From Patescibacteria group bacterium (lineage in GTDB: Bacteria > Patescibacteriota > Minisyncoccia > Phycocordibacterales > UBA9973): DNA of 64,000 bases. The stretch covers positions 10,972 to 74,971 of the forward strand of contig JBBTUY010000001.1 in the NCBI GenBank assembly GCA_038063515.1. Direction: 5' to 3'. Both the position numbers and the translations under genes were made by a program. A model generated the notes under the pieces. The model saw only the letters and a list, made by a program, of their open reading frames with translations. It was not told the origin of the DNA and ran no database searches. Below are positions 6,314 through 20,636 of this stretch, piece by piece; the first letter of the stretch is position 1; every line of letters starts with the position of its first letter.

Positions 6314-6328
6314 TATAATGTCTAAAAG

Positions 6329-6904
6329 ATGACAAACACAAAAATACAAATAGCCTTCAGAGATTTTAATGTAACATATTTTAAACCGGATAATAAAGAA
6401 ATTGTAATTTTTTCGTTAGGTAATTGTGAGATTGGAATACCCATTGTACGTATTCACTCTTCTTGCTTGTTTGGGGAAGCTTTTAATTCACAAGATTGTG
6501 ATTGCGCACAACAACTCAATGCTACTATTAAAAGAATTGTTCAAAATGGTGCAGGTATCATAGTTTATGTTTTTGAAGAAGGTAGAGGGATAGGGCTAGA
6601 AAATAAAATAAAAGCAATAGAAATTGAACGTACAGAAGAGGTAGACACAGTAGAGGCTTTTAGAAAATTAGGCTTTGAACCAGACCCGCGAGATTTGGAT
6701 ATTCCAGCTAAAATACTTTCAGATTTAAACACAAGTAAAACTATTGGATTATTTTCTGGAAATCCAAAAAAGAAACAATCATTAGAAAAGTTCGGATTTA
6801 AAATTGTTGAAGAATATGAAACTAGTGAACCTTTATTATCAGTAGTAGCAAAAAAGGAAAAAGAAACTAAACGTACAAAACTCGGATATAGTTACAAAAA
6901 ATAA
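6329..6904 (+). CDS. ribA: GTP cyclohydrolase II-like (RibA family)
   Basis: RIHSSCLFGEAF...CDCAQQL...EGRGIGLENKI closely matches the RibA zinc and catalytic motifs. Confidence 0.7.
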   Translation: MTNTKIQIAFRDFNVTYFKPDNKEIVIFSLGNCEIGIPIVRIHSSCLFGEAFNSQDCDCAQQLNATIKRIVQNGAGIIVYVFEEGRGIGLENKIKAIEIERTEEVDTVEAFRKLGFEPDPRDLDIPAKILSDLNTSKTIGLFSGNPKKKQSLEKFGFKIVEEYETSEPLLSVVAKKEKETKRTKLGYSYKK

Positions 6905-7230
6905 TGTTTAAAATCATAAAAATTTTCTTAAACACAATACCTATAATTTTTATGGTTTTTCTGATACCCATTGTGGAGGATGATTATTTGCTCACTGGTA
7001 TCTATATAGCAATAATCATCGCTCTTTTTTCATTTAAAAAAGAACGAAAAGAAATACTCATCTTTACTCTCGGATTTTTCTCTATGATATTTTTTGAGTA
7101 TATCTTTATAAGTACTGGAGTAGAAACTTTTTTAAGAAATAGTTTATTCGGCATAATGCCACTCTGGCTTCCATTTCTCTGGGGTTATGGTTTTGTAGTT
7201 ATTAAGCGCTCTACCTACCTATTAAATTAA
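6904..7230 (+). CDS. Small polytopic membrane protein, hypothetical
   Basis: Three hydrophobic segments; start overlaps the ribA stop. Confidence 0.3.
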   Translation: MFKIIKIFLNTIPIIFMVFLIPIVEDDYLLTGIYIAIIIALFSFKKERKEILIFTLGFFSMIFFEYIFISTGVETFLRNSLFGIMPLWLPFLWGYGFVVIKRSTYLLN

Positions 7231-7235
7231 CTCTG

Positions 7236-7256
7236 TGTCAAAGACCGTCTTTGACA
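7236..7256. repeat. Terminal hairpin TGTCAAAGAC-C-GTCTTTGACA
   Basis: Perfect 10-bp stem read directly; overlaps the transposase stop codon. Confidence 0.8.
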
Positions 7257-7873
7257 GTACCTTCCTTGCATAATTCTAGTGTTTCTTGCTCAAAATCTTT
7301 TTCGTCAAATGTGGACATTATGAGATCTTTAGATAGTATTGTTAGATTTCTTTTGTTTATGAAATCTATGTAACTACTCCATGGATATTCTCTGGGGTGT
7401 TGCGTCATTTTAGCTTTGACAGGATTCATATGCATATATGCTGATATCCACATTAACTGAGGATTATTTTGTATTAGTACAGCTTTGAATTTATCTTGAA
7501 AAACATGCCCAACTCTTTTGTATTTTTTGTTTATGTATTTAGAATAACTTGTACAGAGTTTTGAAATTAATTTTGAAATTGGAACATCTTTAGTTTGTTC
7601 TATGAGTAAATGAAAATGATTCGGCATCAAACAGAAAGCGTGGAGCTTAAAGTCACCCTTAACAGTTCCAGTAATTCTAATTCTTGAGTAGGGCATAGAA
7701 GTTAGCTTCTCTTTATTTAGTTCTTCTTCGGTAAATCCTAAGCATAGTCCGAGTCTAAAAAGAAAAGCTGTGTGATCTTGATTGTCAAAAAATATTTTTT
7801 CTTTGTTGTTACCACGATTGTAGATATGTAAAATATTGCCAGAGGCAAAATTTTTATAGTCTCTATTGTTCAT
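7238..7873 (-). CDS. tnpA: IS200-like / REP-associated tyrosine (Y1 HUH) transposase
   Basis: LHIYNRGNNKEKIFFDNQDHTAFL and CLMPNHFHLLIE (HuH) motifs of the Transposase_17 family. Confidence 0.75.
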   Translation of the reverse strand: MNNRDYKNFASGNILHIYNRGNNKEKIFFDNQDHTAFLFRLGLCLGFTEEELNKEKLTSMPYSRIRITGTVKGDFKLHAFCLMPNHFHLLIEQTKDVPISKLISKLCTSYSKYINKKYKRVGHVFQDKFKAVLIQNNPQLMWISAYMHMNPVKAKMTQHPREYPWSSYIDFINKRNLTILSKDLIMSTFDEKDFEQETLELCKEGTVKDGL

Positions 7874-7883
7874 AATTATATTA

Positions 7884-7904
7884 TGTCAAAGACGGTCTTT
7901 GACA
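7884..7904. repeat. Terminal hairpin TGTCAAAGAC-G-GTCTTTGACA (reverse complement of 7236-7256)
   Basis: Perfect 10-bp stem, 10 nt upstream of the transposase start. Confidence 0.8.
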
Positions 7905-7966
7905 ACAAGTGTATAACTTAGATTTTGTCTAATGCATACAATATTTTTTTGAGTTATAATTAAATA

Positions 7967-8497
7967 ATGTTCTCTGATCCGGTAAAAAATTTAAAATTGT
8001 TTGGACTAAGAGAAGATAGTATTGTTGCAGACTTGGGAGCTGGGACAGGATTTTATTCTGTGGCTGCGGGGGGCATGGTTCCAAAAGGGAAAGTTTATGC
8101 TATTGAAATAGTAAAAGACTTTTTAACAACAATCAAAAACAAAGTAAAAGACGCACATTTAGACAATGTAGACATCATCTGGGGCAATGTAGAGGACAAA
8201 CACGGCACACATTTGGCTGACAGCATAGTGGACGCAGTTATTGCTTCTAATATTTTCTTCCAAGTAGAAGACAAAAATCAATTTATCGAAGAAATAAAAA
8301 GAATATTAAAACCTTCTGGGAAAATACTTATCATTGACTGGCTTCCCGAAGATTCAAAAGATGCTTTACCTATCAAATTCAAAGGCTCTATGTCTAAAGA
8401 AAGGGCACGGGAGATGTTTGAGAAAAAAGGTCTTTTGTTTGATCGTGACATAGACGCAGGTGTGCATCATTATGGTATGATATTAAAAAAGCAATGA
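7967..8497 (+). CDS. Class I SAM-dependent methyltransferase
   Basis: VADLGAGTGFYS glycine-rich SAM-binding motif. Confidence 0.6.
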   Translation: MFSDPVKNLKLFGLREDSIVADLGAGTGFYSVAAGGMVPKGKVYAIEIVKDFLTTIKNKVKDAHLDNVDIIWGNVEDKHGTHLADSIVDAVIASNIFFQVEDKNQFIEEIKRILKPSGKILIIDWLPEDSKDALPIKFKGSMSKERAREMFEKKGLLFDRDIDAGVHHYGMILKKQ

Positions 8498-9800: not shown

Positions 9801-10238
9801 ATGAAAAGCTTAACCAAAATTTTAATTTCTTCTTTAGTTTTTATAATTCTCTTGACCCCTGTCATATCTTTTGCCTTTTTGGATTTAAGACAAGGCTTAG
9901 TGACATGTGGTAGAGGTGTAGCTCCTGGTGTACCCGAAGCATACACCCACCCATGTGGATTTAACGACATGATGGATTTTATAAATAACCTTATTCATTT
10001 TGTATTATTTTTCTTAGCTTTACCTATCGCTGCTATAATGGTTGCATATGCAGGATTTTTACTTGTTACCGCAGGAGAAGAGAGTGGCCATGCACGGCAA
10101 AAAGCAAAGAACATATTTACTCATGCTGTTGTCGGCCTTGTCATAGCCATTGCTTCGTGGCTCATTATTCGCTCAGTACTGTCTATAGTAGGATACGATG
10201 GGGCATGGATAGGTTTACCTAAAACAAATGTATTTTAA
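9801..10238 (+). CDS. T4SS pilin-like protein (TrbC/VirB2-type), paralog 1
   Basis: Signal peptide plus two hydrophobic helices around an AGFLLVTAGEE...KAK motif. Confidence 0.55.
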   Translation: MKSLTKILISSLVFIILLTPVISFAFLDLRQGLVTCGRGVAPGVPEAYTHPCGFNDMMDFINNLIHFVLFFLALPIAAIMVAYAGFLLVTAGEESGHARQKAKNIFTHAVVGLVIAIASWLIIRSVLSIVGYDGAWIGLPKTNVF

Positions 10239-10275
10239 TTTTGCCAAAAATTCAATTTGGCGTTACAATATAAAT

Positions 10276-10668
10276 ATGAAATTTTTTATAAGTAACCTGG
10301 TTGTTTTTACTTTTTTAGCTTTTGTTTTATTACTACCAACCTTAACTTTATATGCAGACACAAACCCTGTTCCGCCTACGACTACCCCTACTCCTTCCGG
10401 TAAACTAGTAAATCCAATACCAAGTATCACTTCGATACCTGGCCTTATTAAGACTATATTAGAGGGTCTGCTTAAGATCGGCCTTCCGCTCATAGCACTC
10501 GCTATTATTTATTGTGGATTTCTCTTTGTCGTGGCTCAGGGTAGTGAAGAGAAGCTTACTAAAGCAAAGGATACTTTGCTGTATACGATCATAGGATCAG
10601 CGATACTTCTCGGTTCTTGGGCTATTGCCAAGTTAATAGAGACGACTGTCACAGGTCTTGGAGCATAA
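10276..10668 (+). CDS. T4SS pilin-like protein, paralog 2
   Basis: IYCGFLFVVAQGSEEKLTKAKDTLLYTIIGSAILLGSWAIAK module; ATG 10276 chosen after the upstream stop. Confidence 0.55.
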   Translation: MKFFISNLVVFTFLAFVLLLPTLTLYADTNPVPPTTTPTPSGKLVNPIPSITSIPGLIKTILEGLLKIGLPLIALAIIYCGFLFVVAQGSEEKLTKAKDTLLYTIIGSAILLGSWAIAKLIETTVTGLGA

Positions 10669-10672
10669 ATAT

Positions 10673-11227
10673 ATGCTAAATTTACTAAACACAATACAAG
10701 AAATTCTAAATTCTCTCATACCGTTATTTGTAACTATCGGCATAGTGTATTTCGTATTCGGTGTTGTGCAGTATTTTATAGCTGATGCAGAAGAAGCAAA
10801 AAAGAATGGACGAGATAGGATCATCTATGGAATTATAGGCCTAGCGGCTATTACAGGCCTCTGGGGGCTTGTAAAAATAGTGCAGGACACCTTTGGAGTC
10901 AGCAACTTGTACGATCCAAACGTATCTGTTTCTGGTGTGTGTCGCGTGGGCACAACTTTCGCGACTTTGGTTTATTATATTATTTGCATAATAAATAAAT
11001 CCGTCATACCTCTTTTATTTGCGGTATCCATTTTAGTATTTGTATACGGGACGGTAAACTTCTTCATCATAGGTGCAGGCGAAGAAGCAAAGAGGACTCA
11101 AGGCAAGCAGTTTATGATCTGGGGAGTTGTAGCTCTCACGGTGATGCTCTCAGTTTGGGGATTAGTTAAAATTTTTGGTAGCACTTTTAATATTAATACA
11201 AGCGTCATACCACAGACTAAAGAATAA
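10673..11227 (+). CDS. T4SS pilin-like protein with two tandem pilin modules
   Basis: Two consecutive modules (…ADAEEAKKNGRDRIIYG… and …IIGAGEEAKRTQGKQFMIWG…). Confidence 0.55.
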   Translation: MLNLLNTIQEILNSLIPLFVTIGIVYFVFGVVQYFIADAEEAKKNGRDRIIYGIIGLAAITGLWGLVKIVQDTFGVSNLYDPNVSVSGVCRVGTTFATLVYYIICIINKSVIPLLFAVSILVFVYGTVNFFIIGAGEEAKRTQGKQFMIWGVVALTVMLSVWGLVKIFGSTFNINTSVIPQTKE

Positions 11228-11229
11228 TT

Positions 11230-11682
11230 ATGCTTTGCACATTTGCTACTGACTCAAAAATACAAGACGTACTGAACTACATTACCTGCTTTGTGTCAAA
11301 ATCTATATTGCCTCTCATTTTTACAGTGGCTATAGTCCTCTTTGTTTGGGGTATAGTGCAGTTTTTCATTATAGGTTCAGGTGAAGAGGCAAAGAGGACT
11401 CAGGGCAAGCAGTTTATGATCTGGGGAATACTCGCTATGGCAGTGATCTTGTCTCTCTGGGGGCTCGTACGTATCCTAGGGAGCACTTTTGGCTTAAATA
11501 CAAGTATTTTACCAGGTACTCGGCCCTCGTCTTCTTCTAATTTTAATCCCGCAGGTACAGACCCAATAGACCCAGGGAATTTCCCTATTACCTTACCTGG
11601 GTCTGAGAACAGTGATAACGTGGATTCTCCCATACCTTGTGAGTTTAGTGCAGAAGGTTGCGGTGGTCAGGTTGAGAGTTAG
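11230..11682 (+). CDS. T4SS pilin-like protein, paralog with a Pro/Ser/Gly-rich C-terminal tail
   Basis: IIGSGEEAKRTQGKQFMIWG module nearly identical to the one in the upstream gene. Confidence 0.55.
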   Translation: MLCTFATDSKIQDVLNYITCFVSKSILPLIFTVAIVLFVWGIVQFFIIGSGEEAKRTQGKQFMIWGILAMAVILSLWGLVRILGSTFGLNTSILPGTRPSSSSNFNPAGTDPIDPGNFPITLPGSENSDNVDSPIPCEFSAEGCGGQVES

Positions 11683-11776
11683 CTTTTTATTTAGCGTGTA
11701 GTATAATATATAGGTATTATTTATTATTAAAATAGGTCGCTTATTATTATAAATTTATGTTTGTTAAAAATTAGTT

Positions 11777-12190
11777 ATGAAAAATAAATTAATGGTTTTA
11801 TCAGGTTTAGTTATGATGTCTGCTCCTGTCGTTGCTTTAGCACAGGTGCAAATACAGAGCGGTGGGGCATGTAGTGGTCTTATTGGTACTGGTACAACAC
11901 AAGGAGGAGTAAAGGAGATCATATGTCGTGTTGGAGATATATTAAGTACAATAGTCCCAGTATTGATGGTGCTTGCTATCATCTACTTCGTATGGGGAGT
12001 TATTAACTACGTTATCGCTAGTGATGAAGAAGCTAAAAAAGCAGGAAGAGATAGAATTATCTACGGAGTTATAGGTCTTGCTGTTATCGTCGGTGTATGG
12101 GGACTTGTAAAAATCGTTCAAGATACATTTGGTTTTGATAACACTAATACAAACCCTATAGTTCTACCAACTATCGATATCTATAACTAA
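11777..12190 (+). CDS. T4SS pilin-like protein, paralog
   Basis: Signal peptide ending in ALAQ, plus a VIASDEEAKKAGRDRIIYGVIGLAV module. Confidence 0.55.
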   Translation: MKNKLMVLSGLVMMSAPVVALAQVQIQSGGACSGLIGTGTTQGGVKEIICRVGDILSTIVPVLMVLAIIYFVWGVINYVIASDEEAKKAGRDRIIYGVIGLAVIVGVWGLVKIVQDTFGFDNTNTNPIVLPTIDIYN

Positions 12191-12192
12191 GC

Positions 12193-12516
12193 ATGATGAA
12201 TTTGTTTTCTACTAACATAGCCTATGCTGCGACGCCGGAGCTTGATAAGTTTATCAGGAACGTGGATCGACTTATTATAAATCCCATCATTACCTTACTT
12301 TTTGCTATTGCTGTCGTATATTTTCTTTACGGTGTGTTTCAGTTTTTGTGGGCTAGTGCAAGTGAAGAGAAAAAGACAAATGGCAAGTCGCACATGCTCT
12401 GGGGCATCATCGGGATCACGATCATGATGAGCGTCTGGGCTATCCTTGGTATCGTAATGCGTACCATAGGAGTCACAGGTATTAACCCACAGCAGGGAAC
12501 AGTGGAGCTAAGGTAG
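12193..12516 (+). CDS. T4SS pilin-like protein, paralog
   Basis: LWASASEEKKTNGKSHMLWGIIG module. Confidence 0.5.
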   Translation: MMNLFSTNIAYAATPELDKFIRNVDRLIINPIITLLFAIAVVYFLYGVFQFLWASASEEKKTNGKSHMLWGIIGITIMMSVWAILGIVMRTIGVTGINPQQGTVELR

Positions 12517-12540
12517 TAGAAATAAAATAAATAGAAATGT

Positions 12541-12575
12541 AAAAGAGCCGAATCATAAACGATTCGGCTCTTTTT
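12541..12575. terminator. Bidirectional rho-independent terminator AAAAGAGCCGAATC-ATAAAC-GATTCGGCTCTTTTT
   Basis: Perfect 10-bp stem flanked by A4 and T5, between convergent transcription units. Confidence 0.8.
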
Positions 12576-12644
12576 GTGCTAGCCAACAGCACGATTTTTC
12601 GGCTAAGACCCTTTGACGGGGGTCAGCCGTGTCATCTACAATCG

Positions 12645-13043
12645 TCACCAGCGATTGTAGATGACAACCTCCTGCCCTTTATCAGGGCGGAAGGTGTAAA
12701 ATCCCGCGGGTTCCTCGGGAGCATGATCGCTCCCGGGGCAGTCGTGAATCTCACGACCGCTGGGTGTGTCTATATAGATACACCCACCCTTCGGGTAGAT
12801 GGCTGGAGAAAGCTCTAGCCACTTCCGAAGGCCTTCCTTTGGAATCTTGAAACGCTTGGGGGTTTTAGCCCCGCTCCCACTGGTGGTGGTACCAGTGGAG
12901 GAATTTTTGGCTTCGACTTTTTGAGGGGCCTCAGCCAGTTGGGTTTTTTTGGTGCTACCCGCTTTCTTTATCAGAAAAGTAGTAACACCTAAGATGATCG
13001 CAGCAACAATGGCAATCAACAGAAGCCCGCTTATTTTTTTCAT
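12645..13043 (-). CDS. Small membrane-anchored protein; C-terminal part encoded by a GC-rich palindrome-dense segment
   Basis: Start codon shares one nucleotide with the upstream stop (TAATG). N-terminal TM anchor. The C-terminal 60 aa come from a region of about 58% GC. Confidence 0.4.
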   Translation of the reverse strand: MKKISGLLLIAIVAAIILGVTTFLIKKAGSTKKTQLAEAPQKVEAKNSSTGTTTSGSGAKTPKRFKIPKEGLRKWLELSPAIYPKGGCIYIDTPSGREIHDCPGSDHAPEEPAGFYTFRPDKGQEVVIYNRW

Positions 13044-14062
13044 TAGTTTTTACTCCCTAAGAATTTTGCAACCAGGGCTGCAGTTGCAGGGTCAAGGCTA
13101 AAATTTTGTGCAGCAATATTCTTCGTGGCCTTACCCAAAGCCATTTGAACTTGCTCTTCTGCTCTTAGCCTGTCCATGCCACCTTTGATAATATTTCCGT
13201 CTTCATCTTGACCTCCATTTACAAGGAGATCAACCATACTATCAAAGTGTCCAATTTCGACGATCTGTCCTTTACGTTGCAGCTTTTCTCTGGTTTTTAA
13301 GGCCAGGTCTTCAGCTACTTTTGAGTCCGAAGGAGCTATCTGAGGTATTACAACATTCGTTATTTTGATACCCCAGGCATCGCTGTCATCTTCGTTTAAT
13401 CTCTCAAGGAGTTGGTCTCCCAACTCCTCATTCGAACTAAGCACTGTTTCAAGATTCATTTGACGCACGCGCACTCTGATTACTTGGTCACGTGCGTCAT
13501 CGATACCTTGCTTTATGTCTTTCATTTCTACCCCGAGATATTCGTAAAGATTGTCGGGGTAATAAGTTACTGTTGCGCTTACAGTAACTTCTACGTTATC
13601 TGCGGTCATAACTCTTAGTTTGTCGAGCGGCATTATCTGCAGTTTGACGTCCTGCGTTTTCAAGGAAAATGGGAGAGGGATCCAACGTAGTCCTTCTCCA
13701 ATTTGAATTCTTTGCCGTTCGCCAAAAAGGAGGAGTAATCCTCTATGCCCAATTTCGACGGTGATGAGCCCATTGACGACCCACCACCCTAAGAATATCG
13801 TCCAAGCTAATAGCCCGAACCATATCCATGACATCGAGAAGCTTAGAAACGTTTCGTAGGCGCTTAGTAATACTAATCCCGCGCCCAGTATGCCCAGTAT
13901 TCTGTCGCCTTGTTCTTTTAAGAATACTAGACATACGATTCCGCCAATAATTCCGGCTACCACACTTAGGCCTTCGAAGCCGTAGATGCGGTAGATGAAT
14001 ATGGTGATTAATCCCAGCAGAGCTGCTGCCAGAACTAATCCTAAAAATTTTTCTTTTCCCAT
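13043..14062 (-). CDS. SPFH/band-7 (stomatin/HflK-like) membrane protein
   Basis: N-terminal multi-TM region, then an SPFH core (…IGHRGLLLLFGERQ…VMTADNVEVTVSATVTY…); AAGGAGA SD 5 nt before the ATG. Confidence 0.7.
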   Translation of the reverse strand: MGKEKFLGLVLAAALLGLITIFIYRIYGFEGLSVVAGIIGGIVCLVFLKEQGDRILGILGAGLVLLSAYETFLSFSMSWIWFGLLAWTIFLGWWVVNGLITVEIGHRGLLLLFGERQRIQIGEGLRWIPLPFSLKTQDVKLQIMPLDKLRVMTADNVEVTVSATVTYYPDNLYEYLGVEMKDIKQGIDDARDQVIRVRVRQMNLETVLSSNEELGDQLLERLNEDDSDAWGIKITNVVIPQIAPSDSKVAEDLALKTREKLQRKGQIVEIGHFDSMVDLLVNGGQDEDGNIIKGGMDRLRAEEQVQMALGKATKNIAAQNFSLDPATAALVAKFLGSKN

Positions 14063-14300
14063 AACGTCTCCTTCGCGCCAGAGGCGCAGTGTTGCGCCCG
14101 CGACGGCGCGGGTGAGTTAACGTTTCTGGATAAATAAATTTACCCAGCTTTAAAAATTCCACTACCTCAAGGTCTCCCTCGAAATACTAAAATTTTTACG
14201 AACTGCATAGTTTGCTCACTAAAGAGCCAGTTTTTACTCGCTACTTGGTAAGCAAACCATGCAATTCTTATTTTATTGTCAGGGGACAGTCTACTGGTGT

Positions 14301-14329
14301 ATTATAGCATATAAATACAGAAAAGTCAA
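14301..14329 (-). promoter_or_regulatory. Consensus sigma70 promoter TTGACT-17-TATAAT (minus strand) with overlapping palindrome GTCAATATTGAC
   Basis: Read on the reverse complement: -35 at 14329-14324, -10 at 14306-14301. A 12-bp perfect palindrome (14325-14336) overlaps the -35. Confidence 0.55.
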
Positions 14330-14375
14330 TATTGACGTTACTTCAAATAGCCTATATTATATAGGTATAACTATG

Positions 14376-19421: not shown

Positions 19422-20636
19422 ATGAGGAGATCAATGAATAAATTTAATAAAACAAAGAATACAGTTTACCTAGACCATGCTTCTTCGGCTAACTTTGCGT
19501 CTTCAAATCCAAGTGCCATTCACGCACTCGGAGTACAAGAGAAAAATAAATTAGAAAATGTGAGAAAAAAAGTGGCAGACATTTTACATGCACACTCTGA
19601 TGAAGTCGTTTTCACATCAGGTGCTACTGAGAGCAATAACTTAGCTATCTTGGGACTTGTTTCTGATTTTAATAAACCACATATTGTTACTACAAACATA
19701 GAACATGCATCTGTATTAGAACTTTGTAAACATTTAGAAGAAACAAAGAGAGCAACAGTGACGTATGTCGAAGTGGGTAACGACGGAATAGTTGATCCAA
19801 AGAAAATAAAAAAAGCTATAAAAGAAAATACAGTACTTGTGTCTGTGATGTATGCAAATAATGAAATAGGTACAATACAACCGATACAAGAAATTGCAAA
19901 AGAGATTCGACACTATAATAAAAGAAACAGGAAAATGAAGTTTTTGGAATGGTCTTCTGATTTTTTCCGAGGACCTGAGAAAAATTTGCATTTTCCTGTT
20001 TCTTTTCATACCGACGCTACACAAGCTGTAAATTATTTATCTATAAATGTTGCCAAGCTCGGTGTAGACTTGATGTCTTTTAATGGCGCAAAAATTTATG
20101 GCCCAAAAGGTGTTGGAGTTTTGTATGTAAAGAAAAATACACCTATTAAGAAAATAATGTTTGGCGGAGACCAAGAGCACGGATTGCGCCCAGGCACAGA
20201 AAATGTTTCAGGTATTACAGAGCTTGCATTTGCTTTAGAGCACACAGAAAAGATTAAGGAAAGGGAAGTCGCGCGTCTCTCTAAGCTCCGTGAATATTTT
20301 ATAAATAAATTATCAAATATTTCACACGCTCACGAAATAAATGGTGATCTGGTAAATAGATTACCAAACAACATAAACATTACCTTCCCAAATATCCCAA
20401 GTGATCTTCTTGTCATAGAATTATCAGCACACGGAATAATGTCTTCTGCGAAGAGTGCGTGTAAATCAGGCGACGGCAAAGCATCACATGTAATACAAGC
20501 AATAAATAAAAATATTAAAGATACAGACGGATCATTGCGTTTTTCTCTCGGTAGAGATACTGCAAAACATGATATCGACTACACTATTACAGTTTTAAAA
20601 AATGTTTTGCAAAAATTAGAAAAATGGTATAATTAA
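19422..20636 (+). CDS. Cysteine desulfurase (class V aminotransferase, IscS/NifS-like)
   Basis: PLP-lysine region SFNGAKIYGPKGVGVLY, HASVLE, GATESNN. Confidence 0.8.
   Translation: MRRSMNKFNKTKNTVYLDHASSANFASSNPSAIHALGVQEKNKLENVRKKVADILHAHSDEVVFTSGATESNNLAILGLVSDFNKPHIVTTNIEHASVLELCKHLEETKRATVTYVEVGNDGIVDPKKIKKAIKENTVLVSVMYANNEIGTIQPIQEIAKEIRHYNKRNRKMKFLEWSSDFFRGPEKNLHFPVSFHTDATQAVNYLSINVAKLGVDLMSFNGAKIYGPKGVGVLYVKKNTPIKKIMFGGDQEHGLRPGTENVSGITELAFALEHTEKIKEREVARLSKLREYFINKLSNISHAHEINGDLVNRLPNNINITFPNIPSDLLVIELSAHGIMSSAKSACKSGDGKASHVIQAINKNIKDTDGSLRFSLGRDTAKHDIDYTITVLKNVLQKLEKWYN

Follow-up and report, generated by a model that had tools for sequence, protein, structure and literature searches.

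A probable REPtron/TIRtron-type resident cassette of one RAYT-like Y1 gene and two 21-nt palindromes in a Patescibacteria genome

In a 64-kb stretch of contig JBBTUY010000001.1, part of a Hainich groundwater metagenome-assembled genome of a Patescibacteria group bacterium (hereafter the window, meaning the whole of the DNA analysed), a gene for a Y1-type HUH nuclease lies between two matching 21-nt palindromes in the interval that follows gyrA. We read this unit as a resident cassette of the REPtron/TIRtron type, in which a single-copy gene resembling those of REP-associated tyrosine transposases (RAYTs) is accompanied by two co-evolved palindromes, that is, as a Patescibacteria variant of the RAYT/TIRYT palindrome system, with a probability that we put at roughly 0.6. 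The architecture of one gene plus two palindromes is a family-wide and highly specific trait, and the slot directly behind gyrA in which the cassette recurs, always antisense to the adjoining genes, is filled in some close relatives and cleanly empty in others. Because only the two flanking copies of the palindrome exist in the window, the system found here is probably a resident, essentially private pair of nuclease and site rather than a proliferating insertion sequence (IS).

The two palindromes read TGTCAAAGACCGTCTTTGACA (7236-7256) and TGTCAAAGACGGTCTTTGACA (7884-7904) and are versions of one 21-nt 10-1-10 palindrome; since the centre base is their sole difference, they are exact reverse complements of each other, which confirms the first-pass annotation of this DNA in its description of a gene bracketed by 21-nt hairpins that are reverse complements. 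Matching across the 64 kb with a tolerance of up to three mismatches returned only those two copies, and none was found in the 100 shuffles used as a control. When folded as single-stranded DNA (ssDNA), each copy is predicted to pair into a stem of 9 bp closed by a loop of 3 nt (dG of -7.1 to -7.6 kcal/mol), with a stability z of -3.6 to -4.5 and none of 200 shuffles being as stable. An Rfam search returned no known RNA family at E up to 1. The downstream copy contains the Y1 stop codon (7238-7240; minus strand ..GTC AAA GAC GGT CTT TGA), an overlap that recurs in the same position and reading frame in orthologs, and the upstream copy ends 10 nt before the Y1 ATG.

The surroundings of the Y1 gene were compared in 78 related loci taken from GTDB genomes; the loci of this study (cited below by L number) were ascertained either by the Y1 gene or by a perfect palindrome, came from metagenome-assembled genomes and metagenome contigs, and had their genes called by simple open reading frame (ORF) heuristics. 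Close orthologs carry (A)TGTCAA[A/G]G-N5-C[T/C]TTGACA(T) about 9-26 nt upstream of the start codon and a second copy overlapping the stop codon, and distant Y1 lineages show the same layout with other palindromes (TGTAGAAGAC, TGTGGAGGG, TGTGCAAAG, TTCCAAGG and TGTTAAACAC). The arms thus shift with the Y1 lineage yet stay self-complementary. Matching perfect palindromes at both ends were found for 33 of the 74 Y1 genes, compared with 1 of 752 non-Y1 genes of at least 150 aa in the same loci (Fisher 3e-37), and the lone exception was a cargo gene situated between the palindromes of a Y1 gene. This enrichment, together with the lineage-specific palindromes, indicates that the palindromes are cognate sites of the Y1 gene and not terminators. 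The two flanking copies of a locus nearly always share their centre, in either orientation, and centres differ between species, which implies ongoing homogenisation; the window pair is in inverted orientation, and both orientations occur among orthologs.

We give next to no chance to the idea of a widespread intergenic terminator or regulatory motif, native to the host, between two copies of which the Y1 gene happens to lie. The downstream copy does stand where Y1 and the gyrA-side genes converge with their 3' ends, and some solitary copies elsewhere lie between convergent genes, as such a motif would. Neither palindrome has a T-tract, however, and a terminator scan called neither of them as an intrinsic terminator; the upstream copy, being located upstream of the -10 box, is probably not transcribed; the arms co-vary with the Y1 lineage; and roughly two in three solitary copies are located within long ORFs. 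The copy count in the window, the terminator scan and the enrichment of pairs at Y1 genes effectively refute this explanation, which the first-pass annotation had named as one that would overturn its own reading.

The gene itself encodes an intact Y1 HUH nuclease, as had been claimed, with N85-H86-F87-H88 as the HUH motif and Y146-M-H-M-N150-P151 as the tyrosine motif (Y...NP). In an alignment of 29 homologs reaching down to 32% identity, H16/N19/R20/G21, N85-H86-F87-H88, F125-Q126, Y146...N150 and S167 are invariant, and Y146..N150-P151, the motif of the catalytic tyrosine, is present in all 29; this invariance of the catalytic motifs indicates that the active site is under selection. The W165-S-S167 tail is present as well, and the motifs NHFH, FQ, YxHxNP and WSS vary little or not at all across the family. 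In Pfam, Y1_Tnp was matched at 4.8e-12, above its cut-off, and the protein has no other Pfam domain. The choice of subclass had been left to a comparison of hidden Markov models (HMMs); the best NCBIfam model was REP_Tyr_transpos (NF047646, REP-associated tyrosine transposase), at a score weighed below, and the IS200 model NF033573 reached 15.5 bits compared with a cut-off of 55. A search of the PDB with the single sequence returned no match and a family profile was needed; with the 29-member alignment, the top match was 4ER8, the E. coli TnpA-REP (1.7e-6), and ISDra2 TnpA followed at about 0.03. An AlphaFold2 model (pLDDT 84.7, pTM 0.86) gave the same order in a fold search, with 4er8_A at the top (E 5.9e-6; TM 0.66, target-normalised) and IS608 and ISDra2 at about 2e-3. 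Taken together, the HMMs, PDB profile, predicted fold and motifs identify the protein, at the level of sequence and model comparison, as RAYT-like rather than as an IS200 TnpA. The family comprises 7,122 clustered matches, and the best 120 of these are all 68-77% identical to the window protein, about 208 aa long and from Patescibacteria, the nearest homolog being about 76% identical.

Within the TnpAY1 classification, subclass 1.1 has the tyrosine motif Y[IV]ENQ, and the Y...NP of the window protein is that of RAYT class 2 (PMC6006769, Table 1). The motif set of subclass 2.1 in the same table consists of NH[YF]H, FQ (or W[EQ]), Y[IV]H.NP and a proximal SS tail; the window protein carries this subclass 2.1/TIRYT set, an assignment made by motif matching to that table. 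TnpAY1 subclass 2.1 (Quentin et al. 2018) is the same group as Bertels' Group 1 RAYTs and probably equals Di Nocera's TIRYTs. The distal helix-turn-helix (HTH)-like C-terminal domain of subclass 2.1 is missing from the window protein, which has 211 aa compared with a median of 238.

The chromosomal position of the cassette was examined across the related loci. The order SBP-methyltransferase / Y1 / gyrA, with Y1 convergent with gyrA, recurs in the same orientation in about 25 species, whose GyrA proteins are 64-89% identical to the window GyrA. Distances between Y1 proteins are correlated with those between GyrA proteins (Mantel r 0.54; none of 5000 permutations as high), with a large intercept, and in some pairs GyrA is about 89% identical but Y1 only 39%, which indicates that the occupant of the slot was occasionally replaced. 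At L053:10001-10579 the same slot is taken by a 38%-identical Y1 that has opposite orientation and a palindrome of its own, with the arms TGTGCAAAG, and at L041:5371-5979 by a 43%-identical Y1, although the GyrA there is about 89% identical to that of L032. Empty slots were found in six of the seven relatives that had been chosen by GyrA, a sampling unbiased for Y1 presence, and additionally in L238; these slots contain no palindrome, half-site or scar, and the methyltransferase gene begins 7-118 nt after gyrA. In the window, positions 7931-7960 align without gaps to the empty-site spacer of L279 (24/30 identical; 3 of 2000 shuffles score as well), an ancestral spacer, so that 6314-7930 is inserted DNA. 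The first-pass annotation was therefore right in treating the element as extra DNA relative to relatives, since the block is absent from empty slots without a scar. It had placed the element between a membrane-protein gene and a methyltransferase gene, but the true slot lies between gyrA and the methyltransferase gene, and the membrane protein is cargo. IS200/IS605 elements integrate 3' of a defined tetra- or pentanucleotide, to which bases 5' of the hairpin guide them. No target-site duplication or conserved target emerged when the cassette boundaries of filled and empty slots were compared.

On the GyrA tree, empty slots are scattered among filled ones in a shallow clade, and deep clades are also filled, a pattern that points either to an old resident lost more than once without leaving a scar or to several gains at this one position. 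The Y1 subfamily occurs in at least five other genomic contexts, two of them each common to two species. Y1 pairs within one genome are 33-64% identical; the window Y1 is single-copy within the 64 kb, where no near-identical extra copy was found, and no relative on plasmids or phages exceeded 34% identity. In nearly all cases the Y1 gene runs on the strand opposite to the genes on either side (L018, L021, L027, L028, L033/L035, L172/L207, L036 and all gyrA-slot loci), and in co-directional arrays this placement could reflect a replication-strand or transcription bias.

An autonomous, minimal IS200-like IS that still transposes by peel-and-paste would account for part of these data, its scarless sites representing precise excision or recent site-biased insertion. 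The intact Y1 active site, the hairpins at both ends, the footprint-free presence and absence among close relatives, the other contexts, the antisense placement with a possible replication-strand bias and the lack of terminal inverted repeats beyond the hairpins or of a target duplication all fit such an element, and like IS200 the cassette is about 0.7 kb long, has Y1 as its only ORF and carries one of its two near-terminal hairpins over the promoter and 5' region. Against this stand an IS200 HMM score far below the cut-off, a tyrosine motif of the form Y...NP and not Y...Q, a length of 211 aa compared with about 130-155 aa for TnpA, and 4ER8 as the closest structure. Unlike IS200, the cassette is not multi-copy, its nearest homolog is well diverged and Y1 genes of the same genome still more so, it recurs in one slot and one orientation across species with partial co-divergence from GyrA, and solo 21-nt palindromes are dispersed without a gene, which is REP-like and not IS-like; IS200/IS605 hairpins are moreover imperfect, whereas the palindromes here are perfect and symmetric. 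We consider an active IS200-like element unlikely, and the earlier designation of the cassette as an IS200-type insertion sequence is not retained.

A metagenome scan with the motif ATGTCAAAG-N5-CTTTGACAT returned 120 loci, in which 32 palindromes adjoin a Y1 gene, 68 are solitary copies from loci free of Y1, and 54 lie too near a contig end to be classified; the dispersed palindromes fall into recurring centre types. Among 89 copies within open frames of at least 120 codons, 79 share one phase, which encodes (M/V/L)SKxxFD(I/M), and the third phase of the palindrome always stops (T-TGA-CA) and is the phase used by the Y1 gene. The same sites are occupied, with differing 5-nt centres, in orthologous RNase H-like, Ile/Val-tRNA-synthetase-like, ThrRS-like and OTCase-like genes of different species, these host-gene names being read from sequence motifs. 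A UvrA-like gene also hosts a palindrome, and example sites are L164:3849, L183:1375, L159:11647, L269:1113 and L012:18066 (related loci L158-L277). Orthologs that lack the palindrome have either an 8-codon gap or an unrelated peptide of equal length at the site, and the intragenic insertion sites are variable loops; in the window, an aminotransferase-class gene (19422-20636) lacks exactly 8 residues where its ortholog carries a palindrome at L204:739. Further copies, which the first-pass annotation had proposed to look for, are missing from the window beyond the flanking pair but dispersed at low density in related contigs, with five in 434 kb ascertained via Y1 and not via the motif, or about one per 87 kb.

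Tight inverted doublets of REPIN-like form, 6-14 nt apart, were also seen (L203:13795/13828, L211:11927/11954, L218:3219/3250, L220:382/409, L236:2645/2672 and L266:10872/10905); some doublets lie in-frame within genes, and at L028:9905-10693 doublets flank Y1 on both sides. Carriage by phages or plasmids was considered and discarded, the relatives found there being at most 34% identical; the 73 palindrome matches in viral contigs were all solitary, none occurred with a Y1 gene, and their number is about that of a rough chance estimate.

By analogy with TnpA-REP and IS608 TnpA, the Y1 protein of a resident cassette would bind the palindrome when it is extruded as an ssDNA hairpin, for example at replication forks, and may then cleave near the hairpin foot by means of Tyr146 and the HUH-bound metal and rejoin the strands. 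Such cleavage and rejoining could seed, homogenise or remove palindrome copies and might permit scarless loss or gain of the whole cassette, and occupation of the promoter-overlapping copy would limit the expression of Y1 itself.

The palindromes could alternatively serve as duplex-DNA sites, either operators or chromosome-organising sites of the matS/parS/NBS kind, for a dimeric protein that is a domesticated Y1 or an unrelated factor, with the flanking copies regulating the gene. Conserved 8-bp arms around a variable, uncontacted 5-bp centre are typical of dimer sites, the upstream copy lies on the core promoter, and the low copy number, the tolerance of coding regions and the conserved positions in orthologous genes are in keeping with this role; in addition, the 14 imperfect copies contain 7 G.T and 3 A.C mismatches, which is no significant wobble excess of the kind that selection for a hairpin would leave. 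A mere binder, however, would not need the HUH motif and tyrosine that are invariant to 32% identity, all characterised relatives act on folded ssDNA, and the arms remain self-complementary while changing with the Y1 lineage. Nor does an operator role explain the copy at the stop codon or the third copies found around cargo (see below), and the 8-codon insertion polymorphisms imply mobility of the site. We regard duplex-site binding as very unlikely.

Several observations weigh against the resident RAYT-like cassette that we favour. With its perfectly symmetric arms and a centre that varies and flips freely, the site is missing the strand-discriminating features of TnpA-REP; no GT[AG]G tag is present at the hairpin foot, which reads (A)TGT...ACA(T). 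The 66.7 bits reached with the RAYT model NF047646 fall below its cut-off of 80. Copy number is far below that of classical REP families, with nothing in the window beyond the flanking pair, and in the ThrRS-like gene the equal-length replacement is unexplained by simple insertion. The empty-slot loci contained no palindrome in 111 kb compared with 1.3 expected, a weak test and a difference that is not significant. Scarless empty sites together with at least five other contexts would also be expected from a rarely moving autonomous element. In L238, finally, the gyrA/methyltransferase slot is empty and an intragenic palindrome lies 4.4 kb away (L238:7356 and 11745-14367), so either the palindromes outlive the Y1 of the slot or another Y1 copy is present elsewhere in that genome.

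The features of the cassette and of the DNA next to it are collected in the table.

Table. Annotated features of the gyrA/methyltransferase interval in the window
Feature	Position	Strand	Details
Cargo between gyrA stop (6313) and cassette	6314..7235	+	GTP cyclohydrolase II (GCH2) 6329-6904; 108-aa membrane protein 6904-7230
3' palindrome copy	7236..7256	.	TGTCAAAG-ACCGT-CTTTGACA on + strand; carries Y1 stop codon
Y1 HUH nuclease gene, RAYT-like (TnpAY1 class 2, subclass 2.1 motifs)	7238..7873	-	211 aa; HxYNRG, NHFH, FQ, YMHMNP, PWSSY
-10-like TAATAT (7883->7878), then AATT, then ATG	7874..7883	-	Leaderless or near-leaderless transcript likely
5' palindrome copy	7884..7904	.	TGTCAAAG-ACGGT-CTTTGACA on + strand; spans spacer and -35 zone of Y1 promoter
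Cassette-side spacer ACAAGTGTATAACTTAGATTTTGTCT	7905..7930	.	Inserted; semi-conserved ..AAG..TTGATAACT.. in orthologs
Ancestral gyrA-methyltransferase spacer remnant	7931..7966	+	Methyltransferase -10 TATAAT 7955-7960, 6 nt, ATG 7967

A promoter-like site, TTGTCA-16 nt-TAATAT (7905->7878), lies over the upstream palindrome. Among 38 distinct ortholog copies, 16 have a perfect TATAAT within 13 nt past the upstream palindrome, often as TGnTATAAT, and the distance from the -10 box to the ATG peaks at 6-7 nt in orthologs; the methyltransferase gene has an equal layout. A looser definition of the -10 box was tried as a control for promoter overlap (82% versus 57%) and set aside as uninformative because the DNA is AT-rich, so that only the counts of perfect TATAAT are meaningful. 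The layout points to leaderless transcription, and the position of the palindrome over the promoter points to occlusion of the promoter when the site is occupied, which makes the upstream palindrome a candidate binding or autoregulation site. Gene starts in the neighbourhood lie 6-9 nt after a TATAAT and lack a Shine-Dalgarno sequence, for example those of the methyltransferase gene (TATAAT-N6-ATG) and of GCH2 (TATAAT-N9-ATG) (window 7955-7967, 6314-6331 and 7874-7883); the window and many orthologous loci suggest that leaderless or near-leaderless transcription may be widespread in this lineage. Where the slot is empty, gyrA and the methyltransferase gene can be 7 nt apart and are then probably co-transcribed; in filled loci, an outward promoter of the form TATAAT-N6-ATG separates the palindrome from the methyltransferase gene.

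A DnaA-box-like 9-mer (TTATCCACA, TTATCCACT or TTATCAACA) was noticed in several loci (L007:~4150, L013, L010, L284 and L163) about 10-20 nt from the upstream palindrome, on the side of the methyltransferase promoter and ahead of it, and its counterpart in the window is TTATACACT at 7911-7919. A replication origin, which TTATCCACA and TTATCAACA had brought to mind, was rejected: GC skew is positive throughout the locus, there is no dnaA nearby, and DnaA boxes occur in the window at chance frequency (3 found, 3.1 expected). A DnaA_C-like tail is described for subclass 2.1 proteins by Quentin et al. (PMC6006769), and the window protein has no such tail. Farther along, beyond the methyltransferase-SBP pair, the window (9801-12516) and the examined relatives L278-L284 share an array of 4-6 small T4SS_pilin/TrbC-like genes.

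The interval between gyrA and Y1 is itself variable. A small gene on the gyrA strand was present there in 27 of 40 filled slots and in none of 7 empty ones (p = 0.0012), and the cargo comprises at least about 15 unrelated types (kinase-like, isochorismatase-like, cupin-like, methyltransferase, NUDIX, acetyltransferase and others); loci of this hotspot include L008-L038, L163 and L284. Homologs of the window's cargo, GCH2 and the membrane protein, are absent from all other loci fetched. A third palindrome directly follows the gyrA stop codon in 8 loci (7 distinct, as L016 and L165 read identically there) and thereby encloses the cargo; no such third copy stands on the gyrA side of the cargo in the window, and overall the cargo is bracketed by two palindromes in about one third of cases. 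A more far-reaching reading would make Y1 and its palindromes a gene-capture platform, with the ssDNA hairpins as recombination sites like the attC sites of integrons, at which Y1 would insert or exchange single cargo genes and also write 24-nt in-frame modules (MSKxxFDI) into housekeeping-type genes. No cargo-plus-palindrome unit was found at a second location in about 3 Mb of loci, and we see this reading as a long shot; if true, a domesticated Y1 system would be shaping the proteins of ultra-small genomes as well as their gene content. As a resident cassette, the unit in any case marks a hotspot of turnover of small cargo genes.

In-frame palindromic repeats have precedents. The Rickettsia palindromic elements (RPEs), which Ogata and colleagues reportedly described in 2000, are said to lie in-frame inside protein-coding genes, and no transposase is known for them. 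Like those elements and like intragenic REPs, the dispersed palindromes are tolerated in-frame in variable loops and differ in presence and absence between species; intragenic REPs have been noted in PMC3733652 and PMC6006769. Unlike RPEs, the unit is only about 24 nt long (8 codons, MSKxxFDI), can be read through in one and the same phase from either strand and is linked to a Y1 gene, and, in contrast to both RPEs and intragenic REPs, some of its sites represent an equal-length replacement rather than an insertion.

The RAYT/REP partnership is the textbook case of a domesticated transposase with its repeats, and it has been studied mainly in Proteobacteria and Cyanobacteria in its high-copy extragenic form. 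Its reference system, the REPtron, consists of a RAYT/TnpA-REP gene flanked by REP/BIME (E. coli yafM; 4ER8; Nunvar 2010; Ton-Hoang 2012; Messing 2012; Corneloup 2021), and cleavage and strand transfer on ssDNA hairpins have an assay precedent (PMC8266576). Like a REPtron, the unit described here has a single-copy, class-2 Y...NP Y1 gene bracketed by cognate hairpin palindromes that also occur elsewhere, including as inverted doublets, with co-evolution of protein and palindrome and mostly vertical inheritance with losses. Unlike a REPtron, it lacks GT[AG]G and has symmetric arms with a variable centre, which leave no obvious strand discrimination possible; its palindromes number about one per 87 kb rather than hundreds per genome and are, when dispersed, mostly intragenic and in-frame rather than extragenic; and its protein, which scores below the RAYT cut-off, is longer at 211 aa, having an insert after beta1/alphaA and before the HUH strand as well as a WSS tail. 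The system persists in sub-megabase genomes with very few copies and tolerates or favours in-frame positions in housekeeping-type genes. Since it comprises one gene and one perfectly symmetric 21-nt site, and since filled as well as empty alleles exist in nature, it is a minimal system for questions about the good or harm that such nucleases do to the host.

A close likeness also exists with the TIRtron and its TIRYT (Di Nocera 2013), that is, with TnpAY1 subclass 2.1 (Quentin 2018) or Group 1 RAYTs (Bertels 2017). No Patescibacteria members are reported in those three studies, and no description of a comparable Patescibacteria system was found in the searchable literature. Differences from the TIRtron are the missing distal HTH/DnaA_C-like domain of the window protein and the window repeats, whose arms (TGTCAAAG) are without GGGGWSAS, a motif of most TIRYT repeats. 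The fixed gyrA slot, the association with cargo and the in-frame dispersal are not described for the TIRtron in any of the three, and we single out the in-frame 24-nt modules, the cassette-linked cargo hotspot and the natural filled and empty alleles as family-level features of note. Whereas Quentin et al. reported no REP-like structures for subclass 2.1, the largest RAYT-like subclass, a clear palindrome was found here in every lineage, and a large Patescibacteria branch of the family, with more than 7,000 clustered proteins, has the architecture of a gene between two palindromes. In common with the TIRtron, the cassette has flanking inverted repeats that are not of the GTAG type, that can be self-complementary and that can extend over the gene at its 5' or its 3' end, in repeat families of low or moderate copy number associated with a gene that is itself low in copy number.

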